From a virus (lineage: Duplodnaviria; Caudoviricetes), in the IMG/VR virus record IMGVR_UViG_3300028840_001210, positions 1 through 59,757 of that record: a stretch of 59,757 nt of DNA, one strand, 5' to 3'. Position numbers and translations under genes: made by a program. Positions 24,357 to 59,757 of the stretch are shown here, one piece after another; position 1 is the first letter of the stretch; every line of letters starts with the position of its first letter. The notes below the pieces were generated by a model. That model was not told the DNA's origin. It worked only from the letters and a program-made list of their open reading frames with translations, and searched no databases.

Positions 24357-24701
24357 TTATACCTTCCATGTGCGCCAGCGTATAAAATACCATGCAGCAC
24401 CTGACACGCCAGCGACAAGCACCAAAACATGAGCGACAGTCATACTCGACAAAACGCAGAGAGAAAAGAGAAGCGCGAACCATGGCGACACGCAGAAAGG
24501 GCACGTCAGAGCGCGCCCGATCTCAGTCTTTGCCACTGGCATGCCATCTGGACCGCGTTGATCTCTGTATTCGTAACAACCAGCCGCGACGCGCAGTCGC
24601 TGCATAATCCCCCATGGGCCATCTTCGACGACTACAAACCAAGACGCACGCACTGTCGCCAGTGCTGCAGCCAGCCACAAGATCCACTCTGGTACGTTCA
24701 T
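24357..24701 (-). CDS. DUF1360-like membrane protein
   Basis: LATVR..W, LTCPFCVSPW, TM helices. Confidence 0.7.
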   Translation of the reverse strand: MNVPEWILWLAAALATVRASWFVVVEDGPWGIMQRLRVAAGCYEYRDQRGPDGMPVAKTEIGRALTCPFCVSPWFALLFSLCVLSSMTVAHVLVLVAGVSGAAWYFIRWRTWKV

Positions 24702-26728: not shown

Positions 26729-26798
26729 GCAGATCCCCCTTGGAGAGCGAGCGCGCCGATCGCTCGACGCGCTCGCATAGTAGATCACGATCCAGACG

Positions 26799-40865: not shown

Positions 40866-41443
40866 GCGTCCACTCGAAAGGAAAAGCCGCACTTGGGGCA
40901 GTGGTACGTGCTCGACTCTGCGTCGCCGGCCTCGGCGCTCGCGTCTTCGCCCCCGAGATCCACTTCGACTGGCTGGATCTCGACTTGGATCTCTTGGATC
41001 TCGACTGGCGTCCAGAACGGCACGAAGTCGATCCCACCTTGCATGTCGGCGAGAAGTCGCTCGCCATCCAGATCATAATTGACCTCTGACAAGCGATTGT
41101 CGACGTAGGCCAGCGTGCGGCCCTCTGGCGTCTCTATGTCGAGATCGTCGCGCTTGGTCGCCACCAAGAGCTGGCCTTCTGTCTCGATCAAAACGAGCTG
41201 CGAGATCCCTGCAGCCTTGCACTGTGCGAGCGTCTTGTTACCGCCGATCGTCTTGAGATTCTTGTCGAGCAAGATCCCACGACCAGCGCCAAAGCGCTCG
41301 ATCGACTCGGCGAGCATCGCGTTACCGCGTGGCGTGCCTTTGTTGGCATTGTGCGAGTCTGGTATCGCTTCGTCAATGTCGACGATACGCACGCGCACAC
41401 CTGGCGCGACTTCGTGTACTGTCCCTGGCAAAGTGTCAGACAT
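40862..41443 (-). CDS. ParB/Srx N-terminal domain protein with C-terminal zinc ribbon
   Basis: N.N, L..SI..FG..R.I, IGGNKT, YVDNRLSE, CPKCG. Confidence 0.8.
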   Translation of the reverse strand: MSDTLPGTVHEVAPGVRVRIVDIDEAIPDSHNANKGTPRGNAMLAESIERFGAGRGILLDKNLKTIGGNKTLAQCKAAGISQLVLIETEGQLLVATKRDDLDIETPEGRTLAYVDNRLSEVNYDLDGERLLADMQGGIDFVPFWTPVEIQEIQVEIQPVEVDLGGEDASAEAGDAESSTYHCPKCGFSFRVDA

Positions 41444-41572: not shown

Positions 41573-41603
41573 GGGCCAGACGCCAGAAAAGCAAAACTCG
41601 ATC

Positions 41604-41703
41604 GAAAGATCTTTGCAAAATGTCTTGACATTCTCGCGAGCCTGTGCTATAATGTGTCTGTTGGACCTGACCGCACGACCACACACAGAGACGGAGAAAC
41701 CAC
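41604..41703 (+). promoter_or_regulatory. Early promoter/leader cassette, copy 2
   Basis: -35 at 41625, -10 at 41648; identical downstream block. Confidence 0.9.
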
Positions 41704-41940
41704 ATGGACGCAGTAACAAAGCTCACCAAGCTAAACCAGCTCACTGCCACAAAATTCGATCGCGAGTACAAGCGCCTGACAGCGCTCACACTGGACCAGG
41801 CGAGCCAAGTACTGGCCGAGTACAAAGCGGTTTATGGCGACGACTTTGTCGTCTCGATCGTCACAGTCGCAAAGCTGCGCGCAAAGACTGCAGCGCTCGC
41901 CGAGCTGGCCGAGCAAGGGATCGAGATAGTAGGCGCGTAA
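41704..41940 (+). CDS. Early hypothetical protein
   Basis: GGAGA SD after the cassette. Confidence 0.75.
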   Translation: MDAVTKLTKLNQLTATKFDREYKRLTALTLDQASQVLAEYKAVYGDDFVVSIVTVAKLRAKTAALAELAEQGIEIVGA

Positions 41941-42743: not shown

Positions 42744-42758
42744 GTTGCCAGATTGATC

Positions 42759-42861
42759 GAAAGATCTTTGCAAAAAGTCTTGACATTCTCTCGCGCCTGT
42801 GCTATAATGTGTCTGTTGGACCTGACCGCACGACCACACACACAGCACTTGGAGAAACGAC
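42759..42861 (+). promoter_or_regulatory. Early promoter/leader cassette, copy 3
   Basis: -35 at 42780, -10 at 42803. Confidence 0.9.
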
Positions 42862-43509
42862 ATGAAGCAAGCGACGACCTACTACCAGCTACTTGGCCAG
42901 AAACTGTACGAGCACAAAGTCACCTCGCGATACGGCCAGATACAAGCCGACGTACAGCTCGGCCCTCGCATCACAGACGACCAGACCAAGATCGAGATCC
43001 CTTCGTACTCGTACCATGGCGACGCTGTCGAATGGTGGAAGCTCATGGGCTTTCGCTTCGATCGCGATCGCTTGGTCTGGTATCGCGACTTGGCAAAGCC
43101 AGCCAAGGGCCAGAGCAAGCCACACCGGCCAGAAGTCTGGCTCAAGTGCGCGAGCCGCAAGTATGCAGAGTTTTGCCCGATCTTCGAGCACTTGAACTAT
43201 ACGCGCGACAGCTCGGTACGCGCGCAGCACTTCCCCTTCGAGTTTCTCGCCATTGGCCAAACGTTCTACATGTACGACCCGGCCATCGACGACGACTTGG
43301 TCAAAGCTCGCACCAAGAAGGACCATGGCGAGCTTCCCAAGAATCTGGAAGTCTGGATCGTCTTGGACGAAGGCGAAGATCTGCGCGACTACTACAGTGT
43401 CGCAGTCGACACGCTCAAAGAGCAAAGCGCAGCCAGCGAAAAGCCAGCGACCATGAGTCGCCAATTGTACGAGATGGACAAGCGCGCAAGAGGGATCAGC
43501 ACCGACTAG
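42862..43509 (+). CDS. Early hypothetical protein
   Basis: Leader boxes; MGFRFD....WY motif. Confidence 0.75.
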   Translation: MKQATTYYQLLGQKLYEHKVTSRYGQIQADVQLGPRITDDQTKIEIPSYSYHGDAVEWWKLMGFRFDRDRLVWYRDLAKPAKGQSKPHRPEVWLKCASRKYAEFCPIFEHLNYTRDSSVRAQHFPFEFLAIGQTFYMYDPAIDDDLVKARTKKDHGELPKNLEVWIVLDEGEDLRDYYSVAVDTLKEQSAASEKPATMSRQLYEMDKRARGISTD

Positions 43510-44459: not shown

Positions 44460-44467
44460 CTCGATCA

Positions 44468-44560
44468 ATCTGGTAAAATGTCTTGACATTCTCTCGCACC
44501 TGTGCTATAATGTGTCTGTTGGACCTGACCGCACGACCACACACACAAGGAGATCGAGCA
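44468..44560 (+). promoter_or_regulatory. Early promoter/leader cassette, copy 4
   Basis: -35 at 44483, -10 at 44506. Confidence 0.9.
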
Positions 44561-44809
44561 ATGCAAGTACACTACTTTGTCGACTGTCAACCAGTACACG
44601 CAGATCAGTTTTTTGGCCAAGGCTGGCAAGACTTTGACGTCTTCGAGCTGGTCGAAGTCGCTGTCGCGCCAGTACATGGCGAGCTGCAGCGGTGGCATGT
44701 TTCTGTCGCTTTCGAGTCTCGGCTCGCTTTCGTACAGCACGCGCAGCACGCCGAGCACGTTGTACGGGTACAAGAGCGGGCCTTCGCTGGCGAGCTTTCT
44801 TCGCTGTAG
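44561..44809 (+). CDS. Early hypothetical protein
   Basis: AGGAG SD. Confidence 0.7.
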   Translation: MQVHYFVDCQPVHADQFFGQGWQDFDVFELVEVAVAPVHGELQRWHVSVAFESRLAFVQHAQHAEHVVRVQERAFAGELSSL

Positions 44810-45072: not shown

Positions 45073-45113
45073 GCTCGCGTCCAAAAAGGCCAAGAGAGCT
45101 GGCGAGAAAGTCA

Positions 45114-45215
45114 AAAGATCTTCACAAAAAGTCTTGACATTCTCGCCAGCCTGTGCTATAATGTGTCTGTTGGACCTGACCGCACGACCACACACACAAT
45201 ACTTGGAGAAACGAC
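45114..45215 (+). promoter_or_regulatory. Early promoter/leader cassette, copy 5
   Basis: -35 at 45134, -10 at 45157. Confidence 0.9.
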
Positions 45216-45467
45216 ATGCAGACAGTCCAGATCGATGGCAAGACTTACAGACTACACAGCGACGTACTAGGCGCAGAAGGCCAGCACCAAGACGCGCGCG
45301 ACGCTTTCGCCGAGCTTGGGATCACTGGCTTTTATAACGCGCTCGCCCCACGTCGCCGCAACTACTTCGAGCAAGTCTTCATTCTGAGCGATGGCTCTGC
45401 GATGCTCGCAGACTCGCGTATCAGCTCGCAAGTCTCGCGCAAGCTGGCCGAGAAGGCGCGCGCATAA
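45216..45467 (+). CDS. Early hypothetical protein
   Basis: Leader boxes. Confidence 0.7.
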   Translation: MQTVQIDGKTYRLHSDVLGAEGQHQDARDAFAELGITGFYNALAPRRRNYFEQVFILSDGSAMLADSRISSQVSRKLAEKARA

Positions 45468-47346: not shown

Positions 47347-47381
47347 AAGAGCGCTGGCGAGATGGCCAGCGCTCTCTTTTT
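47347..47381. terminator. Terminator between convergent operons
   Basis: AGAGCGCTGGC/GCCAGCGCTCT stem plus CTTTTT. Confidence 0.75.
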
Positions 47382-47395: not shown

Positions 47396-47908
47396 TCAAG
47401 CGCGCAAACAGTCTTCGCAGTCTGGCATGCCAGTCTTGCACAAGACGCACTTGTCTGCAGTCTTCGACTTTGTCTCTCTCTTCGCAGCCAGTACCATCGT
47501 CCAGACAAAGACGAAGAAGCACGCAGCCACAAAAGCGCATATGCTCATGATCTGAAAGTACACTCGCCACGCTCGGCGCCGCTCGACGCCCTCGAGCACT
47601 GCAGTGATCTGCGCTTCCAGTAGCACGCGTCGCGCGTGCGCGTCTGTGTTGGCTGTGATGCGCTCGACGTCTGCGTCGCCTTGCGCGCGTATCTCTTCGA
47701 CGCGTGCTCGCGCGAGCGCTTCGTCTGTGCGCGCCTGTTGTGTCTGCGCTTCCAGCTCTGCGATCTTTTCGAGCGCAGCGACGTCGACGCCAGTACTCTG
47801 GCGCTGGCCATCGTTCACAGTGACCCCAACAAAGAGACATGCAGCCGCGATCATGAGCACACCAAGACCAAAGACCACGCGAAGCGCTCTTCCTTCTGCT
47901 ACCAACAT
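47396..47908 (-). CDS. Two-TM coiled-coil membrane protein
   Basis: Hydrophobic ends around a heptad region; AAGGGGG SD. Confidence 0.65.
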   Translation of the reverse strand: MLVAEGRALRVVFGLGVLMIAAACLFVGVTVNDGQRQSTGVDVAALEKIAELEAQTQQARTDEALARARVEEIRAQGDADVERITANTDAHARRVLLEAQITAVLEGVERRRAWRVYFQIMSICAFVAACFFVFVWTMVLAAKRETKSKTADKCVLCKTGMPDCEDCLRA

Positions 47909-47919
47909 GATACCCCCTT

Positions 47920-48408
47920 CTAGTGTATGACTTCTATGTCTGGCGCTGGCTGTGGATCGTCGATCGTGTATGGCATGCGACCGAGATCGATCTCTTGCGA
48001 GCCGCCAGACTCGCGACCAGTGATCAGGCGCTGCGCGCCATAGATGCGCACGTCGCTGGCCTGGATGCCGGCAGTATAGAGCGAGTGCGCGATCTTGTCG
48101 AGCACGCGATCCATGCCGCTTTCGACCTTGCCCACTTGGACAGATGCGAAGCGATAGCCGAGCCACATGGCGACGCCAGCGCACACTGGGATCGCAGTGC
48201 TGGCCAGCATCGCCCACGCGATCGCGACGCCCTTGCTCTGTATGGCGAGCCAGCTATACCAGACCAAGTACAGCGAGATCGCCAGCGTCGCAAGTAGCGC
48301 GACTGCGAGCCCGATCCCGACCACGCCGAGCACGTCGAGCGCTTGCTTGATCTTGCTCGGCTGTACTGGCTGTGGACCTTCGACGCTCGTGTATGATACT
48401 CTCTTCAT
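47920..48408 (-). CDS. Membrane protein downstream of the FtsK-like gene (Spd-like by position)
   Basis: Two TM helices; ATGA-coupled to the ATPase. Confidence 0.6.
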   Translation of the reverse strand: MKRVSYTSVEGPQPVQPSKIKQALDVLGVVGIGLAVALLATLAISLYLVWYSWLAIQSKGVAIAWAMLASTAIPVCAGVAMWLGYRFASVQVGKVESGMDRVLDKIAHSLYTAGIQASDVRIYGAQRLITGRESGGSQEIDLGRMPYTIDDPQPAPDIEVIH

Positions 48409-49832
48409 GCTTCGTTCCTTTCTTGACTGTCTGTCTGTCTACCAAAAGCGCGCGCGTCTTCGTCGCCAGCTCGGCCTGTCTGGCCAGCTCTGTGCGTCTC
48501 TAGCCAGACAGACAGCTCTGCGCTGCCCTCGAGCTGCGACCAGACGTCACGACCAAGAGCCAAGAGCCAGCGCGCTCGCGACGCGCCTGGCTTGCGCTCG
48601 CTGTCCAGTCGCTGGACCATTGCCGGCCTTCCATCGCCAGCGATCGCTGCGCGCATGGTCGCCTGCAATTCGTCCACTGTCGCTGGCTGTCGCCGACTTG
48701 GTCGCTGTGGTACGTCTTGGCCGACGTCTTCGAGCTGGACCTCTGGCCAAGCATCGAAGAGCCAGCGCTCTATGTCGCGCTGCGCGACTTGTGCCATGAG
48801 CTTCGCTTCGTCGAGTATGGCGACCTGTACGCGATGGACAGCGCCGGGACTGACTGTGTACGCATCGCCAGCGCCCAAGAGACGATCAGCTCTTGGAGTC
48901 GACGACCCCACAGCCACGCGCGACGCGTCGAGATCGTCGACTCGCAGCGCCAGCTTGCCCACCAAGCACCGACGCGTCGAAGCGTCGCCGAAAGCGTCGA
49001 GCGCCGGGTGTTGTGTGGCACAAACGAGATGGACGCGAGCCGCTCGGCCTTCTCTGGCGATCTTGGCCATCAGACCAGCGATAGTACGATCGTTTGTCAG
49101 CTCTTGGAACTCATCAAAGAGCACGACCAAGGGATCGCACGCCAGAGCTGGCTTTTCATGGTGCTCGTATCGCTCGCGCATAGTCTTCGCAGCAAAAGCC
49201 AGAGCGCTGATCACTTGCTCGCGAGACGTCGCCACTGGCCCGACCACACCGGCCAGACGCTGGCACGAGCGCAGCGAGTCGCCATACTTGCCATCGATCA
49301 GCACGAGCCTGGCTCGCTCTTTCTCTGTCGCGTGGCGTGCGAGCTGGTAAGCAATAGAGCGCATGGCGATCGTCTTGCCAGATCCCGGCGTGCCAGAGAT
49401 CAGCACGTGAGGGATCGCGTCGCAGAGCTGCATGGCGATCGTCTGGCCGTATTCGTTCATGCCCACGACAAAGACGTCTGGTCGTAGCGGGTATGGCGCG
49501 AGATCTCCAAGTGCGACAGAAGTCATGGCCAGCTCGCTCGGCCATGCCGCTTCCACGCGCACATGGCGCGACTGCATAAAGACAGAAGGATCGCCAGCAA
49601 ACGACCACGGCACAAACTGACGCAAGAGCGCGCTGTCGTGCTTGCGCAGCGCCTGCAGCGTGCGACCAGCGTACATGCCAGCGTCGAGCAAGAGAGCGCC
49701 AGCTCTAGGCCCGCATACAGCGCGCAAGTCTCGAAGCTGGAAAGCATCGCCGAAAGCGCCACGACCAGCCGCACTGTACAGCGCCTGACCCCACTGTCGC
49801 AAGTAGTCAGATCTGATCTGTCGCGTGTCCAT
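48405..49832 (-). CDS. FtsK/SpoIIIE (TraB-like) DNA translocase ATPase
   Basis: PHVLISGTPGSGKT, LIDGK, VVLFDEFQEL, GRAARVHLVCATQHP, LLGAGD. Confidence 0.9.
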   Translation of the reverse strand: MDTRQIRSDYLRQWGQALYSAAGRGAFGDAFQLRDLRAVCGPRAGALLLDAGMYAGRTLQALRKHDSALLRQFVPWSFAGDPSVFMQSRHVRVEAAWPSELAMTSVALGDLAPYPLRPDVFVVGMNEYGQTIAMQLCDAIPHVLISGTPGSGKTIAMRSIAYQLARHATEKERARLVLIDGKYGDSLRSCQRLAGVVGPVATSREQVISALAFAAKTMRERYEHHEKPALACDPLVVLFDEFQELTNDRTIAGLMAKIAREGRAARVHLVCATQHPALDAFGDASTRRCLVGKLALRVDDLDASRVAVGSSTPRADRLLGAGDAYTVSPGAVHRVQVAILDEAKLMAQVAQRDIERWLFDAWPEVQLEDVGQDVPQRPSRRQPATVDELQATMRAAIAGDGRPAMVQRLDSERKPGASRARWLLALGRDVWSQLEGSAELSVWLETHRAGQTGRAGDEDARAFGRQTDSQERNEA

Positions 49833-49983
49833 CGCTGGCCCTTTCCACAAGACGCGCTTGGCCTTCTACCACAGTCAGATCGTACTTTTTGACGATCATG
49901 TTTTTGAGCGCTTTTGTGTACGCTGGCAAGCAAGCCAGAAAGCCAAGCACGAAACCAAAAGCAAAAGCCCAAAGACCAGTCAT
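49807..49983 (-). CDS. Small single-TM protein (paralogue B)
   Basis: AFGFVLGF...YDLT...GQ. Confidence 0.6.
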   Translation of the reverse strand: MTGLWAFAFGFVLGFLACLPAYTKALKNMIVKKYDLTVVEGQARLVERASDGHATDQI

Positions 49984-50153
49984 GGCTGTCTCTCTCTCTT
50001 TACCCAAGTAAGCTGGCCATACTGGCGCGTGAGATCATGCGTCTTTGTCTTGTCAGAATAACACTTCGCCAGCCAGCCAAAGCCAAGTATAAAACCAAAC
50101 GCGCCAGAACAGAAAGCGATCAAAAGTCCACCGCAAAAAGTAAAAAAGTCCAT
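49980..50153 (-). CDS. Small TM protein (paralogue A; absent from the ORF track)
   Basis: MDFFTFCGGLLIAFCSGAFGFILGF...HDLTRQYGQ; AGGGGGA SD. Confidence 0.6.
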   Translation of the reverse strand: MDFFTFCGGLLIAFCSGAFGFILGFGWLAKCYSDKTKTHDLTRQYGQLTWVKRERQP

Positions 50154-50157
50154 GTGT

Positions 50158-50475
50158 CTATCCCCCTATAGTTTGCATAGCTTCGAGTATGTCGTCGTCG
50201 ATCACGACTTCGATGGCTGGAACGTCACCGGGCCCTGACACCTCGAGCGGCGTGCTAAACATGTCCCCAAGATACTCGGCGAGACGCTCGGCCAGCTCGC
50301 GCAGCGCTGGATCGTCGAGTATGCACTCGCGCGCGTCGCGCTCTTGCGCGGCTTTGTCGAGCGTCTCTCGGATCCTTGTCGATCGCTCGTTTCGTGGCAA
50401 GCTGGCCAGCCACGCAGCGAGCGACGGGTACTCTTCCGGACAGTACGAAAAGGTCACTCTGGCGATCTTGCGCAT
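50158..50475 (-). CDS. ParR-like adaptor / DNA-binding protein
   Basis: RVTFS...L..WL..LP..ERS..IRE.L and an acidic tail; in the ParM operon. Confidence 0.6.
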   Translation of the reverse strand: MRKIARVTFSYCPEEYPSLAAWLASLPRNERSTRIRETLDKAAQERDARECILDDPALRELAERLAEYLGDMFSTPLEVSGPGDVPAIEVVIDDDILEAMQTIGG

Positions 50476-50699
50476 GTCTCGCTCTCTTCTGTCCAGCCTG
50501 GCTGGCCAGCTTGCCACTCGCGACGATCCAGCTTTTTCTGGCACTCTGGACAAGGATCGTCTGGCGCTGGTATCCAGTCGAGATCCGTGTCGACACTGTC
50601 ATCGATGTAAGTATCGGCAGATCCACAGTAGATACACTCTTGCGCGCCAGTGTCTGGCCAGCACTCGCCGCACACATTGCAGACTCTGATCTCTTCCAT
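50454..50699 (-). CDS. Small zinc-binding protein
   Basis: Three CxxC pairs. Confidence 0.55.
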   Translation of the reverse strand: MEEIRVCNVCGECWPDTGAQECIYCGSADTYIDDSVDTDLDWIPAPDDPCPECQKKLDRREWQAGQPGWTEESETCARSPE

Positions 50700-50740
50700 G
50701 TTCACACTCCGTAACATGTCTGGCGCTCTTTGCTTCTCAC

Positions 50741-51787
50741 CTAGTAAGAAGACTGGCGCGACAAAAAAAGGCCATACTTGAGAAAGCCACGCACATTGGC
50801 GAGCTGTGGATCTGGCACTGTCTCGGCGTGCTGGTATCGCTCGGCCAGAGTGCCGGCGACCATGGCTTGCGCGCCCCCACAGAGAAAAACACGATCCAGA
50901 TCAGCGCCTTCTCCCCAGTACGACGCGCAGAAAGCGACCACAGCTTCGCCGAAAGTCTCGCGCGCAGCGTTGATCGCTGGCGTAAGGTCGACCTGGTCGC
51001 CATAGTAGAACACATGGCCAGCGACGATGGCGCGCGAGATCTCAAAGTCTGACAGCTCTAGGCCTGGACAGTTATGTCGCAGCCACTGACGCACCAAGCG
51101 AGCAACGTACAAGCCGCCACGCTTCATGCTGCCACGTCTGTCTGGCAAGTCTTGCAGGCGCTGCACTGTGAGTACTTGCGTCGTACCTCCCCCGACGTCG
51201 AGCACGCCAAAGCGACCACGCGCGAGATCTTGATCTCGCATCGTGCCACGATCGTCGAGCACGCGATCCAGCACGCAGCCGAAAGGCTGGGGGACCACTC
51301 GCACGACGCGTACTTCCAGCTTTTGCCACGAGCCGCGATCGCCGAGCTTGATCGAGTGCGAGCCATTCAGTACAGCGCGCACGTGCTCGATCGCGCCATC
51401 ATTCTGGATCGTCGAGATGGGAAGACCGACGACCACGTCGAGATCGACTCGCGTGGCGTGCGATACCTGGCCGAGCGCAGCCAGTGCCAAGATGCGCCAG
51501 ATCTGCGACTCGATCCAGCGCTCTGACTCTTCATTGATCAAGAGACCAGAGCGATCGATCGCGCTCTGGCCGACAGCATACTCTGTATCATCGCCCTGGA
51601 AGCGCACGAGCATGCTGGCGCTCGCTCTATGGACGCTCATGAGCGACTCGACGTACTTGCACGCGACAGACTCAAAAAGAACAGTCTGCAGCTCGCCACG
51701 CTGCGCTTGGTTTCCCGGGAAACATTGCCGAGAGCCAGAGACAGCGACAGCGGTTTTGTAGTACCCAACGTCAAGACCTACGATCAT
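50741..51787 (-). CDS. parM: ParM/StbA-family actin-like ATPase
   Basis: GLDVGYYKT, VVGLP, VVPQP, VLDVGGGTT, FLCGGA, ANVRGF. Confidence 0.9.
   Translation of the reverse strand: MIVGLDVGYYKTAVAVSGSRQCFPGNQAQRGELQTVLFESVACKYVESLMSVHRASASMLVRFQGDDTEYAVGQSAIDRSGLLINEESERWIESQIWRILALAALGQVSHATRVDLDVVVGLPISTIQNDGAIEHVRAVLNGSHSIKLGDRGSWQKLEVRVVRVVPQPFGCVLDRVLDDRGTMRDQDLARGRFGVLDVGGGTTQVLTVQRLQDLPDRRGSMKRGGLYVARLVRQWLRHNCPGLELSDFEISRAIVAGHVFYYGDQVDLTPAINAARETFGEAVVAFCASYWGEGADLDRVFLCGGAQAMVAGTLAERYQHAETVPDPQLANVRGFLKYGLFLSRQSSY
51709..51724. promoter_or_regulatory. parS-like palindrome (6 of 6), inside the parM 5' end
   Basis: GGTTTCCCGGGAAACA (15/16). Confidence 0.75.
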
Positions 51788-51930
51788 GACTTTCCCCCTT
51801 ACCAGTCCAAAAGCGCACGACTGTGCGCACGAGTAAAAAGATCATAGAACCAAGTCCCCCGACGACTGCGAACCACGACCAAGCGATCGCCAGTCTCGAC
51901 GTCAAGAGCGAGACTAAAAGCTCGACAGAG

Positions 51931-52050
51931 TCACGATCCATGGTCGTCGCCTTTCAGCACGTACCCACGCAAAGCCCACAGACACGCAAAGATCAGCGAG
52001 ACCAAGATCCAGATCCCGAGCACGCGCAAGACCAGCTCAAAAGCCGACAT
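51931..52050 (-). CDS. Small membrane peptide
   Basis: MSAFELVLRVLGIWILVSLIFACLW; GGGAG SD. Confidence 0.5.
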   Translation of the reverse strand: MSAFELVLRVLGIWILVSLIFACLWALRGYVLKGDDHGS

Positions 52051-52261
52051 GCTCTTCTCCCACAGTGCCAGACTCTTCGTCGAGCACGTCGCCAGACTCG
52101 ACAAAGTCGCCCTCTCTGCGTCGCATGCGCTGCAGCACGAGAAACGAAGACATGCCAACCTTGTCGAGTCGCCGAAAGAGACCAGCGAGAGCGCACTCCA
52201 TGCGCACTATATGCACCAAGAGCGCCACAAAGATCGCGATCACGAGCTGTCTGTCTGTCAT
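52037..52261 (-). CDS. Small membrane-anchored protein
   Basis: ATGA-coupled to the HTH gene; hydrophobic N-terminus. Confidence 0.55.
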   Translation of the reverse strand: MTDRQLVIAIFVALLVHIVRMECALAGLFRRLDKVGMSSFLVLQRMRRREGDFVESGDVLDEESGTVGEEHVGF

Positions 52262-52542
52262 GTCTGGATCTCCATGGCGAGCTGTGTACAATCTGGCTCG
52301 CTCTCTTGGTCGCCATCGCCGGCAGCTCTGGTCAGCTCAAAAAACTGCGCTGGCTCGCAGCCGAGCACGCTCATGACGCGCGCAGCTTTGGCTAGGTTTA
52401 GATTGATCACATGGCCATTGCGCAGCCGCGTGATAAAATTCTCGCTCACCTCTGCAGCCCTGGCCAGCTCTCGACTGGTCAGCTCGCGACGCTCTCGCGC
52501 TTCGTACTCTCTGATGCACTGGTTTAGCGCCACTTGTAACAT
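52258..52542 (-). CDS. Cro/C1-type HTH regulator
   Basis: LTSRELARAAEVSENFITRLRNG...LGCEP; GGAGGT SD. Confidence 0.85.
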   Translation of the reverse strand: MLQVALNQCIREYEARERRELTSRELARAAEVSENFITRLRNGHVINLNLAKAARVMSVLGCEPAQFFELTRAAGDGDQESEPDCTQLAMEIQT

Positions 52543-52575
52543 GCCCACCTCCATGAATACCTGAAACCGATGCCC

Positions 52576-52719
52576 TATAATACCATAATATGACACGCGT
52601 GTCAACAGAAAACCAAAAGAAGCGCATTAAAATCTGGTAAAATCACTTGACAAGTACTCTCGACCTGTGATATAATTGTCTTGACTTTGACCACGACCAC
52701 ACACACTGGGAGAAACGAC
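52576..52719. promoter_or_regulatory. Divergent promoters with palindromic operator
   Basis: Leftward TTGACA-17-TATTAT overlapping TGACACGCGTGTCA (52591-52604); rightward TTGACA (52647)-18-TATAAT (52671), a degenerate cassette copy. Confidence 0.75.
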
Positions 52720-53301
52720 ATGACACGCAAGCTGGTTTCCATACTCTGGATCGAGACATCTGGCGACGAAGTAAACGCGCGCATGCGTATGCTGAAACTA
52801 TGGCGCGACGAAGAGTATATCGCAGACGACATGCAGCCAGAGATCAGCTACTGCACAGAAGAGATCGAGCCAGAAAACCACCACAAAGCGATCGACTTTT
52901 GCGCAGCGTACAGATACAAGCCGCATGGCGTCTGGTACGCTGGCCATCCGGGGATCGCCTTCGCCCCGCATACCCAAGAGATCAATGGCATGACAGAGAC
53001 AGCACGCGCGATCAGAGACTTGGCTCGCGCTGGCACGTCGATCCATGTCCAGTACGAGCACATTATACCAGCGCCAGTACGCTTTGTACGCAGCTCGCGC
53101 AACATGACATACAGGTACATCGCGAGCAAGCGCACAATGAAAGATCTGCAGAGACTGCGCGCAAAGTATCGCGACGCTGGCGAGCTGGCATGGACTCCCG
53201 AAGACGTCGCCAGCCACGCGCGCGATCGCTTTGGACGTCCACAGGCGACATACCCCCTGGCCGACTGGACAGTCGCATGGCCTGGCCAGATGCGCTGGTA
53301 A
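52720..53301 (+). CDS. Hypothetical protein
   Basis: Both leader boxes. Confidence 0.7.
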   Translation: MTRKLVSILWIETSGDEVNARMRMLKLWRDEEYIADDMQPEISYCTEEIEPENHHKAIDFCAAYRYKPHGVWYAGHPGIAFAPHTQEINGMTETARAIRDLARAGTSIHVQYEHIIPAPVRFVRSSRNMTYRYIASKRTMKDLQRLRAKYRDAGELAWTPEDVASHARDRFGRPQATYPLADWTVAWPGQMRW

Positions 53302-53377
53302 ACGTTCATTGACCAGAGCGCCAGCTCGATCTGGCGCTCTGGATCTAGTATGGCCAATTGGCCGAAAGGAAAGACCC

Positions 53378-54940
53378 ATGGCAAAGCAAGACGCCACACC
53401 CACAGCGCACGAGTACCCGATCAGTTACATGGTACGCGTGCCACTTGTCGACGTCGTCGACAATCCCTTCCAGCATCGCACGTACCACGACGAAGCGATC
53501 GCGCAGCTCGCCGAGTCGATCGAGCGCATGCGCGACTCGTACTCTGCGACGTCTGGACTCGTACAAGTACCCACTGGTCGCCTGATCGACTCCCAAGGCG
53601 GCCCTCTGTCGCCAGCCAGCGATCCAGCGCTCTGGCCAGAAGGCGCGCGAGTACAGCTCGCCACTGGTCACAGACGCTTGCGCGCTTTCATGGTGCTCTC
53701 TGACAAGTACGACGACTGTCAGACCATGCCAGTATTCTTGGTGGACCTGTCAGACCAAGACATGGCTGTCAGTAACTACACAGAGAACGAAGACAGAGAA
53801 GACCAGAGCGCGATCGAGCTGGCGCGCACGCTCGAAGGCATGAGCAAGTCTTTCAAGTGGTCGCATGAGAAGCTCGCCGAGAAGATAGGGCGATCGCGCT
53901 CGCACGTTACAAACTTGTTACGACTGCTAAACCTGTCCAAAGCTGCGCAGAAGGCGATCGAGAATGGCGTCATGAGCGCTCGCCATGGTCGAGAGCTTCT
54001 CGTGCTCAAAGCGATCCCTGGCGCGTACAAGCGACTCGGCAGAGACTACCAGAGCATTGGCCAGCTCAGCGTGTCAGACCTCCAAGGCGAGATCGCGACG
54101 ACTATACTGCAGATGTGTCGATCGATGTCAGAAGCGACATGGCCAGAAGGCTGGACGCCAGAGTCAGACGCGCAGCCAGTCGTCGGCGCATGTGAGGGAT
54201 GCAAGCACGCGATCAGCTACAAGAAAAAGCCACGATGCTCGAATAAAGATTGCTTTGCGGCCAAGCTGCAGCGCCATCTTGTCGAAGTCACTGGCCCGAA
54301 AGAAGCGCGCGCGATGTTTGACCAGACGCCCACAGAGTACAAGCTCGGCAGCGTCGCGACATGGCGCTCGTGCTCTGCGTGTCGTCGATCGCCAGCCCAC
54401 TTGGAAGGCGTCGTCAAAGACACGATCTCTGGCTGGTTTATCAAACAAGGCGCGATCTCTTTCCATCGCGCGATCTGTCCAGACTGTGTACAAAGAGCTG
54501 GACTCAAGATCGTCGAAGCGCCAGCCGAGTCTGGCGACGCCAGCGACACTGTCACAGATGGCGCGCGAGTCGTCGCGAGCGCTCGCTCTGTCGAGTCCAG
54601 CACGACGCCAGCGACCACGCCAGCGCAGCCAGCGCGCGAGCTGCCCAAACTGACGATCGTCCAGAAACCAAAGACGATCCCTTACGTACTTGTCACGATG
54701 CGCATATCGCCCCCGACCAGCGACACTGGCGAACAGATCGCGCAAGTGACCACAGCTCGCGAAGGAAAGACCACAGGCATGGTCGACGCCAACACAGTCG
54801 AGATGGAAGCATACCACGCCGAGAGCGCGACAGACTTGCTCGACCAGATCAAAGGCCAGCTCGCAGCGCTGATCGATGGCCAGCGCGCAGAGCATGACGC
54901 ACTGACTGCAGAGACCAGCGACGAAGAGTCGCACGACTAG
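53378..54940 (+). CDS. parB: ParB/Spo0J-like protein (PRTRC-associated) with Cys-rich C-terminal half
   Basis: NPFQHR, LAESI, GHRRLRA, ENEDRED, LAEKIGRSRSHVTNLLRLL, HGRELL. Confidence 0.9.
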   Translation: MAKQDATPTAHEYPISYMVRVPLVDVVDNPFQHRTYHDEAIAQLAESIERMRDSYSATSGLVQVPTGRLIDSQGGPLSPASDPALWPEGARVQLATGHRRLRAFMVLSDKYDDCQTMPVFLVDLSDQDMAVSNYTENEDREDQSAIELARTLEGMSKSFKWSHEKLAEKIGRSRSHVTNLLRLLNLSKAAQKAIENGVMSARHGRELLVLKAIPGAYKRLGRDYQSIGQLSVSDLQGEIATTILQMCRSMSEATWPEGWTPESDAQPVVGACEGCKHAISYKKKPRCSNKDCFAAKLQRHLVEVTGPKEARAMFDQTPTEYKLGSVATWRSCSACRRSPAHLEGVVKDTISGWFIKQGAISFHRAICPDCVQRAGLKIVEAPAESGDASDTVTDGARVVASARSVESSTTPATTPAQPARELPKLTIVQKPKTIPYVLVTMRISPPTSDTGEQIAQVTTAREGKTTGMVDANTVEMEAYHAESATDLLDQIKGQLAALIDGQRAEHDALTAETSDEESHD

Positions 54941-54972
54941 AGCCAGCACACTGGCTAGAAAGAGACACGATC

Positions 54973-55647
54973 ATGACTACACGAGTTTTTGTCTACAATG
55001 ACACAGAGTACGACGACCCTGGCCAAGAGTACACAGTCGAAGACGTCAAGGCGTCTTTACAAGCGATCTTTCCAGAGATCGCAAAGTGCAAGATCGTCGA
55101 GACGAAAGAGAACGAAGGCGAAGAGAACGAACGAACGATCTATCGTTTCGAGAAGCAAGCGACTGTCAAGGGACAAGAGATCGAAGAGAGCGAGACATCT
55201 GCACAAGCGATCGATGCTAGTGAGGCTGGCGAAAGCCAGCCCGATCGCACTCTTGAAGCTGCACTCTCGACAGCGCTGCGCGCGCTGCATATCGCTTTTT
55301 CGCCAGCCAGCGTGGTCGTCTCGACAGACAAGCTGGCCGACATTCTCGGGCCGCTACAGTACGCGCTCGAAGAGTACGACGTCGCCACTGCGACCATGTC
55401 GCCATACGCGTGCGTCGCAGTGCGCAAAATGGTCGCACTCGTGACAGACGACATGGAGTCGCTCATGAGCACGCAACAAGTCGTCTTTGCTGGACGCGTC
55501 CATGACTGGGTACACCTTTTGCTTGGAGTCCACGAAGCGATCCACCTCTACATAGTCGACAGCCAGCTCGCGCACGCGCTCGACGATCTAGAATGTAAAT
55601 TCGAGATCCAAGTCGAAGGACCAGACCATGCGCGCGTCGATGCTTGA
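54973..55647 (+). CDS. PRTRC protein C-like ubiquitin-fold protein with C-terminal extension
   Basis: RVFVY...DP...TVEDVK..L...FPEIA...F.K.A.VKG (Gly67), then ~157 more residues. Confidence 0.7.
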   Translation: MTTRVFVYNDTEYDDPGQEYTVEDVKASLQAIFPEIAKCKIVETKENEGEENERTIYRFEKQATVKGQEIEESETSAQAIDASEAGESQPDRTLEAALSTALRALHIAFSPASVVVSTDKLADILGPLQYALEEYDVATATMSPYACVAVRKMVALVTDDMESLMSTQQVVFAGRVHDWVHLLLGVHEAIHLYIVDSQLAHALDDLECKFEIQVEGPDHARVDA

Positions 55648-55891
55648 CTTTATGCATGACGCTTTCGATCGCGTGCATGGCATAGAGCTGGCCATGCACG
55701 CGATTATGGCCAAGCTGCACGAGATCGAGCAAGCCGACACTGTCGACTTTCACGAGCTGATCGACATGCAGCCAGAGATCGACCACGCGAGCGCAGAGAT
55801 CACAGCGCACGCGAGACAGTGCGAAAGGATCGTCGGGAAATGCCTATCGCTGCAGCCATCGCCGAGCACTTACCCACCGCATGGCTTTTGA
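55640..55891 (+). CDS. Small helical protein
   Basis: Overlaps both neighbours; start uncertain (55628 or 55640). Confidence 0.5.
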   Translation: MLDFMHDAFDRVHGIELAMHAIMAKLHEIEQADTVDFHELIDMQPEIDHASAEITAHARQCERIVGKCLSLQPSPSTYPPHGF

Positions 55892-56754
55892 CGTCGAGAG
55901 CTACGCAGAGCGCAGCGTCCAGCGCGCGCTGGCCCTTGCGACCATACGCGCAGCGCGAGATCTTGTCAAAGGTCAAGCTGTACAGCTACACCAACACAGC
56001 ATACGAGCTTGAACACTTGCATGGACGCTCGATCGCTTTTCACATCTTGCGCGACTACTTCGACATTGCTTTCGTGCGTGGCTACACGCTCGATCTCGAA
56101 GTCCAAGCATGCGAGCTGGTACATGAGAAGTGTTTTCCTCTCGCGTGGTCGATGCTCGACGACGCGTACAATTGTGGCGAAGATCCCTTCTCGTACCCAC
56201 TGCCATATGAGTCATGGGGGATAGCCTGGGAGATGGACGACGGTACTGGCCAGTACGAGTACGCGATCCCGCTACTGGTCGCACTCTCACACGCGATCGA
56301 GCTACAAAGCGACTGGCAAGAAGAGCACGTCGAAGCGATGGTACTGCAGCTTGACATGCTGTACGACGCGATCAAGTGTAACGGTTTCCATGGCGACCTT
56401 ACGAGCTGGTCGCTGGATGGCGGCAGCGTGCGCGCTGGCGTGCGACAGATGCGCGAGCGCTTCTCTCAGCTCGACGCGCCTTTCGATGGACTCGCGCCAC
56501 TGTCGCATGCGCTCTTGCACGATCGTGATAACGTCTTTCTCGACATGCCACGCTACTGGCGCGCCGACTATGAGTACAGCGTCATGTACTGGGGACCATG
56601 GGAGCTTGACCACTTGACCAAAAAGTACGACGAAGTCAAAGAAGAGATCGCAAAGCTGGAAGCATACATGCAATGGTACGAGAGCACGCCAGACGCGCAG
56701 ATCAGAGTATGCGAAGTGATCGAAGGCGTGCTCGCCACGCTCGATCTAGAGTAG
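55840..56754 (+). CDS. Hypothetical protein in the PRTRC cassette (protein F position)
   Basis: Synteny between Ubl and E2; N.FLD motif; start uncertain. Confidence 0.55.
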   Translation: MPIAAAIAEHLPTAWLLTSRATQSAASSARWPLRPYAQREILSKVKLYSYTNTAYELEHLHGRSIAFHILRDYFDIAFVRGYTLDLEVQACELVHEKCFPLAWSMLDDAYNCGEDPFSYPLPYESWGIAWEMDDGTGQYEYAIPLLVALSHAIELQSDWQEEHVEAMVLQLDMLYDAIKCNGFHGDLTSWSLDGGSVRAGVRQMRERFSQLDAPFDGLAPLSHALLHDRDNVFLDMPRYWRADYEYSVMYWGPWELDHLTKKYDEVKEEIAKLEAYMQWYESTPDAQIRVCEVIEGVLATLDLE

Positions 56755-56765
56755 GGGACCAGACC

Positions 56766-57385
56766 ATGACCACACACATGCCCTTTGGCCTTTCGTTTGG
56801 AGCGAACGACGTCCAGTCGCTTCGCGCGACGATCTATCTGTTCGATCAAACGATATTCATGACACGCTTCTCTGGCGATGGCGAGATCGCGCAGTCTTTC
56901 GAGTGCGATCCCGCCAGCATCGTCGAAGCGTTTAGCGACGCGAGCCACGCAAGCACGAGCTGATCATGGTCACTGATGGACAAGAGCAAGAAAAGATCTT
57001 GTGTGCTCTTCCCGGCATGATCTTTGCTGGTATCGGCCATCGCTGGTTTTGCTACGCAGTCAAAGAGCGACCAGTCGACGACCAAGCGACACTTTACCAT
57101 GTACCACTGCCAAACGTCCACACAAACGGCCAGATCTGCGCTGGCGATACTGGACTCCAAACGCTCGCAGTCCGGACTGGCAACATGCGACCAGCCTTCG
57201 AGCGCTTCATGACGACTGCGTTTAATGGCCATCTGGTCAACAAGAAAAGCAAGAAAGCGCCAGACGACTGCAGAGATATGCTGTACAAGCTCGACGCTCG
57301 ACGACGTCGAAAGTACCCACTCGACGATCTTGTCGCGACTCGCTACGCTCTCAAGAGCATCATGACAAACAACATAGGAAGGTAG
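56766..57385 (+). pseudogene. Prokaryotic E2 family D (PRTRC protein B), split by a frameshift near 56940
   Basis: N-terminal part stops at 56963; LPGMIF, YAVKERP and LYHVPLPNVHTNGQICAG lie in another frame. Confidence 0.7.
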
Positions 57386-57387
57386 AC

Positions 57388-58056
57388 ATGAAGATCTCCA
57401 AAGCTGTACGATACATCACTAGCGACATACTCGAAGCGCACGAGCCGCGCTTCGGTGGATATGACTATATCTTTGCTGGCTCTGGCGTCTGGAAGCGCGC
57501 CATGTCCACAGTGCTGCATGCGTGCGTGCCAGTCGCAAAGTGCAAGATCGCCACGCTTCCAGACGTGGTACAGCCTCACGCGACGCTCATGTATGGTAAG
57601 ATGCCATCAGCTCTATTATGGCGAGCTATCGAAGACGCGCGCAAACAGTGCGCACGCCGGCCGACAGAGTCGCTTTACCATGTCGCGCTGCAGCTCGACA
57701 GAGGGCACGACTTTTACACGCTCGCGCAGCCCAAACAGATCGCGACGCTGGCCAAGGTCGAAGCCGAGACGCCAGAGTCGATGGCCATACCAGCCAGTCA
57801 CGTCGTCGCAGACATCCATACACACCCACTGGGATCAGCTCGGCCAAGCAAGACAGACGACGCAGACGAAACTGGCTTTCGGATCTATGTGATCATTGGC
57901 GACCTGTTCGCACAGAGACCTCTTGTCTTTTGTCGAGTCGGTATCTTTGGCGACTTTTGGCCAGTGCCAGCGCACGAAGTCTTCGACGTCGCATGGCACG
58001 ACTATCGCGATCAGACCACGATCGACAGACACGTCGACCACTGGGAAGGACACTAG
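57388..58056 (+). CDS. JAB/MPN metalloprotease (PRTRC protein A)
   Basis: DIHTHP....PSKTDDADE.GFRIYVIIG, RVGIFG. Confidence 0.9.
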   Translation: MKISKAVRYITSDILEAHEPRFGGYDYIFAGSGVWKRAMSTVLHACVPVAKCKIATLPDVVQPHATLMYGKMPSALLWRAIEDARKQCARRPTESLYHVALQLDRGHDFYTLAQPKQIATLAKVEAETPESMAIPASHVVADIHTHPLGSARPSKTDDADETGFRIYVIIGDLFAQRPLVFCRVGIFGDFWPVPAHEVFDVAWHDYRDQTTIDRHVDHWEGH

Positions 58057-58058
58057 AC

Positions 58059-58922
58059 ATGGTACAGCTCGCCACGCACAAGAAAGCAAGAATCGAGATC
58101 GGCGACCAGCGCGCGATCACTGTCGTGCTGGTCGGCTGTGGGGGGACTGGCTCTTTTGTCGCGCTGCATCTGGCGCGACTCGCGTACCACGCGCGCGAGC
58201 TGGTCGACTTGCGCTTTCGTCTGTACTTTGTCGACGACGACGTCGTCGAGTCCAAAAACATTGGACGCCAAAACTTTTGTCCCTGCGAAGTGGGACACAA
58301 CAAAGCGCAAACGCTCGCCGACAGATACGCGCGCGCTTTTGGCTTTTCGATCACGGCAGTACCTGATCGCTTTACTTTCGAGCTATTCGACACGCAGATC
58401 AAAAAGTCGATCGAGTACCACGAGCAAGCCATTATACTTGGCTGCGTCGACAACACTGCAGCCAGACGCGAGATCGCGCGCTGCGTCTCGCAGAAGACTG
58501 GCTCTCTTTGGTGGATCGACTCTGGAAATGATCGATACTCTGGCCAAGTGCTGATCGGTAACGACACGAGCCGCACGTCGCCACTGATCGAGATCGTCGG
58601 CCTGTGCTCTGCAGTGCCAGCGCCCAGTGTCCAAGAGCCTGGAATCGTCGATCCAGCCAGCGACGTCGACGTCGACTTTGTCGCCGATGGCTTGAGCTGC
58701 GCAGAGCTGGCGCTATTAGGCGCGCAAGGTCTGACGACAAACCAGACCATGGCCGACGTCGTCGCGACGTACTTGCACAGACTGACTGTCATGCACGATC
58801 TCGACGTGCGCGCCACGTATGTCGATCTGCAGACTTTGAGCATGCGCAGCGAGCCGATCGTCAAGCCAAAGCCACCAAAGCGCACTAAAGCCAGCTTGAA
58901 CGCCAGAGCATACCTCGACTAG
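58059..58922 (+). CDS. ThiF/E1-like adenylyltransferase (PRTRC ThiF)
   Basis: LVGCGGTGS, DDDVVESKNIGRQNF, CVDN..ARR, WIDSGN..SGQV, LSCAE. Confidence 0.93.
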   Translation: MVQLATHKKARIEIGDQRAITVVLVGCGGTGSFVALHLARLAYHARELVDLRFRLYFVDDDVVESKNIGRQNFCPCEVGHNKAQTLADRYARAFGFSITAVPDRFTFELFDTQIKKSIEYHEQAIILGCVDNTAARREIARCVSQKTGSLWWIDSGNDRYSGQVLIGNDTSRTSPLIEIVGLCSAVPAPSVQEPGIVDPASDVDVDFVADGLSCAELALLGAQGLTTNQTMADVVATYLHRLTVMHDLDVRATYVDLQTLSMRSEPIVKPKPPKRTKASLNARAYLD

Positions 58923-58929
58923 ACCACAG

Positions 58930-58977
58930 ATCACGCGCGCGCTATGTATTGACAGAATAGCGCGCGCGTGATAAAAT
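58930..58977 (+). promoter_or_regulatory. Initiator promoter with -35 in the loop of a 16-bp inverted repeat
   Basis: Arms 58930-58945 and 58957-58972; TTGACA at 58949, 17-bp spacer, TAAAAT at 58972. Confidence 0.7.
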
Positions 58978-59016
58978 CTAGAAACAAAACCACACACACA
59001 GCGAAAGGACCAGAGC

Positions 59017-59757
59017 ATGATCACGATCTTTAATGGATGCGAGATCCAGCTCGACAGCGCGCAGACGCGCATATACGCGCAAGTGTCTGTCGCACTGCGC
59101 GATCACATAGTCGACTTTAATACTGGCAAGAGCCTGTCGCCTTTTGGAGTCTTCATGTGCATCGCTTTGCACGTCGACCAGTTTGGCTGGTCGTACCCAT
59201 CGCGAGCCACGCTCAAAGCCAAAACTGGGATCAAGACTGACGACTCTTTGACGACCTGTCTGCGACACTTGGTCGCCATGCGCATAGATGGCCATAGAGT
59301 GCTTGCCATCTATCGAGATCAGCGCACAGATGGCAAGTTTGGCTTGTACTGCTATCGCGTCTTCCCTGACGCTTTCGACGACCAGCTCGCCAGCGCGCCC
59401 GAACGCTTCGAGAAGCTCGTACACTGGACCTACAAAGATCCAGCCGAGCGCCAGAAAAGATCCAGTACTGGATCTTCCAGTACTGGACAATCTAGCGAAC
59501 CAGTACCCAATGAACCAGTACCGGATCATGACGCCATGAAGTATAACCATGATCAAGTAGAACTAGAAGAAGGAGAAAGTACCAGCGCTGATCCTGGCGT
59601 GCTTTCCAGCGAAGACGCTGCGCGCGGCCCTCTAGAGATGGCTGCAGAGTGCCAGCGTCGCAGCGCTGGCCAAACGCAATGGACTGTACCCACGAGCGCT
59701 GGCGGCTCTACAAAGCGAGTCGACGCTATGCTGCGCGCGTGGATAGGTAGCAAGCGC
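59017..59757 (+). CDS. Replication initiator, N-terminal HTH part (continues to 471; absent from the ORF track)
   Basis: VFMCIALHVDQFGWSYPSRATL...TG (HTH_36-like); open to the window end. Confidence 0.8.
   Translation, partial: MITIFNGCEIQLDSAQTRIYAQVSVALRDHIVDFNTGKSLSPFGVFMCIALHVDQFGWSYPSRATLKAKTGIKTDDSLTTCLRHLVAMRIDGHRVLAIYRDQRTDGKFGLYCYRVFPDAFDDQLASAPERFEKLVHWTYKDPAERQKRSSTGSSSTGQSSEPVPNEPVPDHDAMKYNHDQVELEEGESTSADPGVLSSEDAARGPLEMAAECQRRSAGQTQWTVPTSAGGSTKRVDAMLRAWIGSKR
59458..59522. repeat. Putative origin iterons inside the initiator gene
   Basis: CCAGTAC x4 (59462, 59477, 59500, 59515); palindrome AGATCCAGTACTGGATCT. Confidence 0.65.
59614..59757. repeat. Terminal direct repeat of 1-144
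   Basis: Identical sequence. Confidence 0.97.

Follow-up and report, generated by a model that had tools for sequence, protein, structure and literature searches.

The canonical role of the FtsK-type pumps FtsK, SpoIIIE and SftA is the clearance of DNA at septa, and SftA shows that such motors exist without a transmembrane (TM) segment. To our knowledge, conjugation of double-stranded DNA (dsDNA) of the TraB type is regarded as peculiar to mycelial actinomycetes. [quoted passage not shown] The FtsK-domain proteins TcpA and TcpB of Clostridium perfringens pCW3 are coupling ATPases of a Gram-positive conjugation system that also includes a relaxase (TcpM) and a multiprotein Tcp apparatus. DNA positioning by an actin-like ATPase is represented by ParMRC of plasmid R1 and, according to its report (PMC4446434), by AlpAC of the Corynebacterium prophage CGP3, which sets a phage-borne precedent. 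Here we describe an operon in which a gene for an FtsK-type pump and a gene for an actin-like ATPase lie together. It occupies positions 47396-52542, minus strand, of IMG/VR record IMGVR_UViG_3300028840_001210, a complete tailed-phage genome of 59,757 bp with direct terminal repeats (DTR) and a completeness rating of 100% (this whole stretch is the window referred to below). Our tentative preference is that the operon encodes a DNA-positioning and septal-pumping apparatus maintaining a plasmid-like prophage, which we regard as possible and for which we weigh the evidence here.

The genes form a single tightly packed operon with several ATGA start/stop overlaps. It is one transcription unit, presumably controlled by its helix-turn-helix (HTH) protein, that joins two modules, each of them conserved separately elsewhere. 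In the following list, which runs in the direction of transcription, TM calls come from a Kyte-Doolittle (KD) script with a 19-aa window and a cut-off of KD 1.6, not from a dedicated predictor.

52258-52542, minus strand: Cro/CI-type HTH regulator, 94 aa, the first gene (Pfam HTH_26, 6.2e-9; HTH_3, 2.9e-6)
52037-52261, minus strand: 74-aa open reading frame (ORF) with a hydrophobic helix at its N-terminus; start codon overlapping the stop of the HTH gene (ATGA)
51931-52050, minus strand: 39-aa single-TM peptide (KD maximum 2.6)
51771-51941, minus strand: 56-aa single-TM peptide (KD maximum 2.05), overlapping the ParM start
50741-51787, minus strand: ParM-type actin-like ATPase, 348 aa (ALP_N, 1.2e-22; MreB-like_C, 5.8e-10)
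50454-50717, minus strand: 87-aa Cys-rich protein with three CxxC pairs in its sequence
50158-50475, minus strand: 105-aa ribbon-helix-helix (RHH)-like protein, after ParM, with an N-terminal strand-helix pattern
49980-50153, minus strand: 57-aa single-TM protein, paralogue of the next
49807-49983, minus strand: 58-aa single-TM protein, paralogue of the preceding one
48405-49832, minus strand: FtsK-type dsDNA translocase motor, 475 aa (PF01580, 1.3e-18; 67.7 bits versus a cut-off of 24)
47920-48408, minus strand: 162-aa two-TM protein, a member of family C1 (below); its start overlaps the FtsK stop codon (ATGA)
47396-47908, minus strand: 170-aa protein, the last gene; besides two hydrophobic helices it has a coiled stretch rich in charge and, at the C-terminus, CxxC..CxxC

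An earlier note on this DNA had listed these genes, and every one that it named is present at its place on the minus strand, except that three TM peptides, not two, follow the HTH gene. Its calls of an HTH protein and of ParM agree with the family matches, as does that of an ATPase with no obvious TM segment with the hydropathy profile; its two TM paralogues are 39% identical across 41 aa (pairwise E, uncorrected for composition, 9e-6), and both proteins that it described as membrane proteins after the ATPase have two hydrophobic stretches. Two of its assignments stood only in part. The "Zn protein" does have the three CxxC pairs, but its Pfam zinc-ribbon matches are weak (0.014-0.023), and no relatives of it were found in related loci. 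The "ParR-like" protein has the position and the RHH-like N-terminus of an adaptor, but no match to a Pfam, PHROG or NCBIfam family.

The motor of this phage has no 19-aa window at KD 1.6 or above, and a hydrophobic window was present in just 4 of 81 sequences of its family. When 5.8 billion proteins were searched, 346 relatives passed E<=0.001. The top 120 were mostly 420-480 aa long (two were of ~600 aa) and 40-51% identical; where the sources carried organism names, these were mostly Chloroflexota, Anaerolineae or Chloroflexi metagenome-assembled genomes (MAGs). At E<=1e-40, a search for fused relatives of at least 833 aa gave none (weak evidence). In an alignment of 24 motor sequences (A1), the Walker A (GSGKT) and Walker B (DEFQE) motifs were invariant or near-invariant and the C-terminal region was conserved, and the best PDB matches of the A1 profile were FtsK motors (2.6e-36), followed by EccC (1.5e-21) and TcpA (2.3e-14). 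An AlphaFold2 model (pLDDT 86.5) matched the FtsK alpha+beta motor (6t8g/2ius/2iut) in Foldseek with E values of 5e-21 to 3e-20 and TMt of 0.68-0.72 over ~380-430 columns. As modeled, the motor has the full FtsK alpha+beta motor fold, and because the model superposes on the complete motor, its first ~130 residues would be the FtsK alpha domain rather than a membrane part. The polypeptide thus begins with the alpha domain and carries no N-terminal TM anchor of its own.

The fold extends to other FtsK-domain proteins, with TcpA (E 4e-18) and EccC (E 4e-14) as runners-up in the Foldseek search, and PADLOC models with FtsK-like domains match the motor as well (SspH, 3.1e-19; mad8, 4.2e-16). With EccC and EssC as structural neighbors, and with PHROGs filing FtsK-like proteins under "moron/host takeover," the motor might be a prophage accessory gene, a membrane-associated FtsK/HerA-type ATPase that expels or blocks foreign DNA or drives protein export like that of type VII secretion systems. 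We consider this very improbable, as the PADLOC and similar matches are limited to the shared P-loop core, the model is closer to the FtsK alpha+beta fold than to EccC (E 5e-21 versus 4e-14), no WXG-type substrates or other defense partners were seen and the linkage to ParM/ParA and replication genes described below fits handling of the element's own DNA.

No gamma-type winged helix was recognized at the C-terminal end of the motor. Modeled alone (pLDDT 84), the C-terminal ~85 aa form four helices with no strands and no wing, and fold searches with them gave Foldseek E values that were all at least 1 and a best VIA match of Z 5.0, which was with a spidroin domain; several DNA binders of the homeodomain or Myb type stood at VIA Z 3.5-4.6, below any trustworthy level. 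This small helical domain is tripled in tandem in two database relatives of 598-611 aa (P0111 and P0117).

The gene that follows the motor is nearly constant. Among the 42 evaluable loci (full-length motor genes with at least 450 nt of downstream sequence), 38 have a C1 gene downstream of the motor on the same strand, 29 of them among the greedy gene calls and a further 9, out of the 13 left over, by frame-by-frame search; the C1 profile matches the 162-aa protein of this phage at E 1.9e-14. Common to the C1 proteins are a basic N-terminus, a pair of TM helices, a Gly-rich juxtamembrane motif and, at the extreme C-terminus, a conserved tail of the "..VIDL" type, and by the positive-inside rule both termini are predicted to face the cytoplasm. 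Since motor sequences rarely have a hydrophobic window and C1 is a near-constant partner, we read the pair as a "split FtsK," a soluble motor of the hexamer type whose membrane anchor is a separate polypeptide. C1 would tether this motor to the membrane or to the septum by means of the conserved tail at its C-terminus. Prediction of a complex between the motor (A1) and the two-TM partner (A2) gave a score of 0.01, which is no answer and counts neither way, and a Protein Atlas search with the partner was uninformative (best score 0.78). The small TM peptides that are specific to the phage may be accessory parts of the same membrane assembly; neither the 39-aa nor the 56-aa peptide has a Pfam or PHROG match, and the 170-aa protein has a weak DUF1218 match (3.7e-4) that falls below the cut-off.

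To place the motor family, a tree of 60 rows was made in a careful IQ-TREE run from the motor domains of this phage, 23 database relatives, the viral-locus copies and the short paralogues. Its references were five pIJ101-type TraB proteins, two FtsK proteins (Ralstonia and Listeria), two actinomycete-plasmid FtsK-like proteins, mycobacteriophage Omega gp203, a Bacillus phage SftA-like protein, EssC, TcpA and TcpB; full-length MAG-locus copies were left out, as were rows whose domain envelope fell short of 150 aa, and pSVH1 TraB is not among the rows. The motor family formed a clade of its own (support 99/98), outside a clade (99/84) that united FtsK proper with Omega gp203 and the plasmid FtsK-like proteins, and the five TraB proteins (99/90) and TcpA/B (100/99) formed further separate clades. 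Its nominal sister was TcpA/B (83/86), a pairing flagged as a possible long-branch artifact, and the split placing it with Tcp, TraB and EssC away from FtsK had a support of 89/68. TcpA is the second-best structural match of the motor, and TcpA/B are its weak nominal sister group, but pCW3 has a relaxase and a conjugation apparatus that were not detected in the phage. On the motor profile, the FtsK proteins scored 115-130 bits, Omega gp203 118 bits, the actinomycete-plasmid FtsK-like proteins 115-118 bits, the Bacillus phage SftA-like protein 91 bits, EssC 60 bits, TcpA 55 bits and pIJ101-type TraB 26-48 bits. FtsK, SpoIIIE and SftA therefore have in common with the phage motor the full alpha+beta fold (TMt up to 0.72) and the top profile scores; they differ from the phage family, which is a separate clade with neither an N-terminal TM domain nor a linker, has a wing-less four-helix C-terminal domain and lives on phages and mobile elements.

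The family is rare in genomes, being present in 2 of 401 sampled from one carrier's phylum (that carrier included). Its neighborhood was surveyed in 17 related viral loci and 35 genome loci with flanks of +/-7 kb. By their titles, 31 of the 35 genome loci are from Chloroflexota lineages (Anaerolineae, Anaerolineales, Thermoflexales, Chloroflexia and unclassified Chloroflexota), the others including two from Planctomycetota and one labeled "delta proteobacterium"; one genome, G003, carries four full-length motor copies. This FtsK-fold motor family is specific to mobile elements, mainly of Chloroflexota. Clustering of the neighbors, by our own ORF calls in 51 loci plus the phage (52 sources), gave the following recurrent families.

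C1, 33 of 52 sources: ~147-aa two-TM protein directly downstream of the motor
C2, 15 of 52 sources: ~277-aa membrane protein with a weak C-terminal HTH
C3, 15 of 52 sources: large serine recombinase
C4, 13 of 52 sources: tyrosine integrase
C5, 9 of 52 sources, this phage included: ParM
C6, 8 of 52 sources: Xis-like HTH protein
C9, 5 of 52 sources: ParA

ParM was encountered within the +/-7-kb flanks in 8 of the 52 related loci, before or after the motor-C1 pair. Overall, the genes that recur beside the motor serve partition (ParM or ParA), replication and integration.

In the phage, ParM exceeds the cut-offs of both Pfam families (ALP_N, 81 versus 26.3 bits; MreB-like_C, 40.3 versus 27.8 bits), matches the partition protein family phrog_691 at 7.9e-39 and the NCBIfam ParM model PRK13917 at 5.9e-27, and has visible phosphate-1 (DVG), phosphate-2 (DVGGGT) and adenosine (GGA) motifs; its relatives carry ParM or StbA names in their source records. 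The 105-aa protein, by its RHH-like sequence pattern and its position, is a candidate ParR-type adaptor. Small proteins that follow ParM in three of the eight ParM-bearing relatives examined (L030, L045 and L054) have the same N-terminal strand-helix pattern. The two genes probably make up an actin-type (type II) DNA-positioning cassette of ParM ATPase plus downstream RHH-like adaptor. As in ParMRC and AlpAC, the actin-like ATPase retains its nucleotide motifs and precedes a small candidate DNA adaptor; in contrast to them, no centromere repeats were identified here, a Cys-rich ORF intervenes between ParM and the adaptor, the cassette sits inside a larger operon with a DNA pump and the ParM also resembles PRTRC_D.

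The other neighbors bear on how an actin cassette and a pump might serve a phage. A PHROG scan that covered 102 of the 114 neighbor ORFs of at least 300 aa recognized primases, primase-polymerases, DnaB-like helicases, methyltransferases and several large terminases, and DnaD-like loader genes also occur beside the motor; these genes show that many of the relatives are prophages with the module in a replication/lysogeny region. Given such company, ParM and its adaptor could position replicating DNA during the lytic cycle, as AlpAC does, while the motor, at the membrane, deals with genomes that are replicated or concatemeric or pulls them apart. The association of ParM with integrases in relatives, which indicates that ParM is not restricted to plasmid lifestyles, would suit such a replication organizer, but the operon itself holds no replication gene, its layout, repressor-headed and next to ParB/PRTRC genes, resembles a maintenance region, and we know of no role of FtsK-type pumps in phage replication. 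A literature search for phage FtsK-like and actin-like genes together also found nothing, and we judge this use of the operon quite unlikely.

Some of the loci look less like prophages. Three syntenic blocks (L068 with L031, L069 with L052 and L070 with L041) share 15.5-16.2 kb of synteny, and L026 and L053 are similar. Each block contains genes for a Sak4-like/AAA_24 ATPase, a methyltransferase, a primase, a DnaB-like helicase, two proteins of unknown function, Xis, a short FtsK paralogue, the motor, C1, C2 and a serine recombinase, beyond which the loci have nothing in common. Their int-xis-rep-"tra"-membrane-protein layout is like that of actinomycete AICEs, making the ~16-kb blocks candidate AICE-like elements or satellites in Chloroflexota MAGs. 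For 44 ORFs of at least 120 aa upstream in the three extended loci, no terminase, portal or capsid family appeared among 25 of the 27 Pfam families listed, which included cellular sugar-nucleotide enzymes and one Phage Tail Collar match to an ORF that was not assignable. The blocks may nonetheless be satellites or hold unrecognized virion genes: their "virion-less" status is unproven because the virion genes of these phages are hard to recognize, 8 of 10 large proteins of the phage described here having no PHROG match and the other 2 being structural. In L026, L031, L052 and L053, a second, shorter FtsK-like paralogue (277-348 aa) lies directly upstream of the motor (~5950-7000 of each locus), so that some Chloroflexota elements have two adjacent FtsK-like paralogues, as with TcpA and TcpB.

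These observations invite comparison with TraB/Spd, on which the earlier note had drawn in suggesting that the phage may also spread from cell to cell without virions: the tethered motor and small TM proteins would pump double-stranded phage DNA across septa or between the cells of a filament, with ParM delivering the DNA to the pore. The layout does resemble the traR-spdB3-spd79-spdB2-orf108-traB order of pSVH1 (PMC4447253) in having a repressor, overlapping small membrane genes and one FtsK-like translocase, which in pSVH1 transfer cannot do without. As the note had said, no relaxase or T4SS is recognizable, the whole 59.8-kb genome having no match to Relaxase PF03432, VirB4 PF03135 or VirD4 PF02534. 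The near-invariant two-TM partner, the AICE-like blocks, the position of the family, apart from FtsK proper and on the TcpA/B, TraB and EssC side of the tree, and carriers from a phylum whose cultured members in these lineages are filamentous all point the same way, and in this the septate filamentous growth of TraB hosts would be shared.

Several differences stand against this. The motor does not group with TraB and scores far more poorly with pIJ101-type TraB than with FtsK. TraB has its own N-terminal membrane-association part and a winged HTH that binds clt, whereas the phage motor is soluble, has a separate two-TM protein and lacks a winged-helix match in its C-terminal domain. No similarity was found between the C1 and C2 profiles and pIJ101 SpdB (probabilities 0.3% and 0.9%), nor is C2 the Pfam family DUF2637. 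The regulator is of the Cro/CI type and not GntR, and the carrier is a tailed phage. By 8-mer statistics, no clt- or KOPS-like motif was skewed or clustered near the operon (at least four identical 8-mers within 400 bp, in or near it), an absence that is weak evidence given that the motif itself is not known; the only clusters were a promoter/5' untranslated region (5'UTR) repeat at 42.5-42.8 kb and one at 54.5-54.9 kb. The deep nodes of the tree are weak, with the Tcp pairing perhaps only long branches meeting, many relatives near terminase and primase genes are ordinary prophages, and phages whose hosts are not filamentous have FtsK-like genes too. The note had proposed that transfer be abandoned if the ATPase grouped with non-transfer families; it was found neither with TraB nor nested in such a family, which leaves the idea standing. 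The Streptomyces analogy survives as one of gene architecture, and virion-free spread is possible in view of the conserved partner and the AICE-like blocks, although the tests proposed for it did not confirm it. We regard lateral transfer of this kind as rather unlikely. Its broadest form, in which filamentous Chloroflexota harbor an actinomycete-like, relaxase-free dsDNA transfer by a split FtsK pump on small integrative elements and tailed phages, and this phage genome spreads along the filament, fed by ParM and without virions, seems to us unlikely.

Maintenance of a plasmid-like prophage fits the phage genome at least as well as transfer does, since the whole genome has no match to two integrase families (Phage_integrase and Resolvase) and carries ParM, ParB and a PRTRC cassette; for the same reasons we take it to be the most likely use of the operon. 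ParM filaments and the adaptor would move copies of the phage genome apart, and the motor with C1, perhaps helped by the small TM proteins, would act at the membrane or septum, clearing phage DNA from closing septa or driving it through them. The outcome would be an extrachromosomal, plasmid-like phage genome kept in every compartment of a dividing host that is probably a filamentous member of the Chloroflexota. The data show the gene content, the operon signals, the fold of the motor, its conservation together with C1 and the missing matches to integrase, relaxase and T4SS families; tethering, a septal site of action, a plasmid lifestyle and the host are parts of this proposal that we infer.

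Several observations weigh against it. The plasmid state, and indeed lysogeny, is deduced indirectly, and the host from nothing but the MAG titles of relatives. The motor family lies outside the clade of FtsK proper. In its relatives, the motor module usually lies near an integrase gene (15 of 52 sources have the serine recombinase, 13 the tyrosine integrase), which means that it is not tied to plasmid maintenance, and on the three ~16-kb integrative blocks a role in transfer is equally sensible. The RHH assignment of the adaptor is drawn from sequence pattern and position alone, and no parC-like iterons were found near the operon, where 52500-52760 held one 14-bp palindrome (short or degenerate sites could escape such a search).

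The control region and the end of the operon have the signals of a regulated transcription unit:

52577-52605, minus strand: sigma-70-like promoter, TTGACA-17-TATTAT, with 11 of 12 matches and a TG ahead of the -10 box
52591-52604: perfect 14-bp palindrome TGACACGCGTGTCA, spanning the -35 box of this promoter
52647-52676, plus strand: divergent promoter (12 of 12 matches) of the PRTRC-like cassette
52681-59757, plus strand: divergent PRTRC-like cassette
47348-47375: hairpin with an 11-bp stem between convergent genes (plus-strand scoring; inverted-repeat family I3)

The palindrome is the sole perfect copy in the phage genome, near-matches with up to three mismatches occurring at the number expected by chance, and it is likely to be the operator of the HTH protein, which also matches PHROG families of transcriptional regulators and repressors and has a GGAGG ahead of its ATG. 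The hairpin is likely a bidirectional terminator that closes the operon.

The genes across the divergent promoter encode ParB (TIGR00180, 5.9e-25), the ubiquitin-like Prok_Ub/PRTRC_C, two unknown ORFs, PRTRC_B (8.8e-14), JAB/PRTRC_A (1.1e-12) and ThiF (5.1e-42). Against the NCBIfam models TIGR03734-03741, all of the matches fall below the cut-offs (bits versus cut-off: ThiF, 143.9/144.75; D, 85.6/214.8; A, 47.9/101.8; B, 51.4/131.45; C, 24.4/45.95; ParB, 31.3/278.6), PRTRC_D being matched by the ParM of the operon (3e-24), and PRTRC_E had no match in the phage. Judged by these scores, this is a distant PRTRC-like cassette. The related loci contained a single weak PRTRC_B match, in L054, which shows that PRTRC is not the usual neighbor of the pump within the +/-7-kb flanks. 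PRTRC is mentioned in papers on plasmids and genomic islands, no functional study was among the titles listed by a literature search, and we know of no functional test of the cassette.

The remainder of the genome is that of a tailed phage, as shown by two proteins recognized in the PHROG scan, a tape-measure protein of 995 aa (best PHROG E 1.4e-66) and a virion structural protein of 1402 aa. An element of about 111 nt occurs in four copies (41602-41712, 42757-42867, 44460-44570 and 45111-45221) with 72-92% identity to the reference copy; a partial copy lies at 52631-52652, the 5' part of the element being found again at the PRTRC promoter. The element holds a TTGACA-type promoter and the leader "ACCACACACA...GGAGAAACGACATG" ahead of plus-strand early genes and looks like a shared early promoter/5'UTR module. 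Within the structural-gene arm, a 732-aa protein with glycosyltransferase (GtrB-like) matches is encoded at 24698-26896 (minus strand), and the phage also has an MT-A70 methyltransferase gene and an ORF whose radical-SAM matches are weak (coordinates 1947-2726, plus strand, and 39429-40892, minus strand).

FtsK-like phage genes and ParM-like systems in prophages are already known; 264 phage records match the motor at ~23-28% identity, and FtsK-like genes are annotated among phages. The operon DNA showed no similarity to 50,697 phage records. What appears undescribed is the split motor-partner family, its union with ParM in a repressor-headed operon beside PRTRC and its occurrence on AICE-like elements outside the Actinomycetota. 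A literature search on TraB and FtsK conjugation in Chloroflexi found nothing, and one on phage-plasmids, FtsK and conjugation returned no description of a split-FtsK module at the level of titles and abstracts.

Even on the most ordinary reading, these data define a "split FtsK" family that had not been described before and has 346 relatives in the database (E<=0.001). In addition, an actin partition cassette here shares a phage operon with a DNA pump, which is rare, and a PRTRC (ubiquitin-like/E1/JAB/ParB) cassette lies beside them. The module of motor and membrane partner occurs in phages and small integrase-bearing elements of a filamentous phylum other than that of the mycelial actinomycetes. 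It would thereby become testable whether septate multicellular growth has repeatedly selected for FtsK-based movement of DNA between compartments and whether temperate phages use such movement, be it for maintenance or for virion-free spread.

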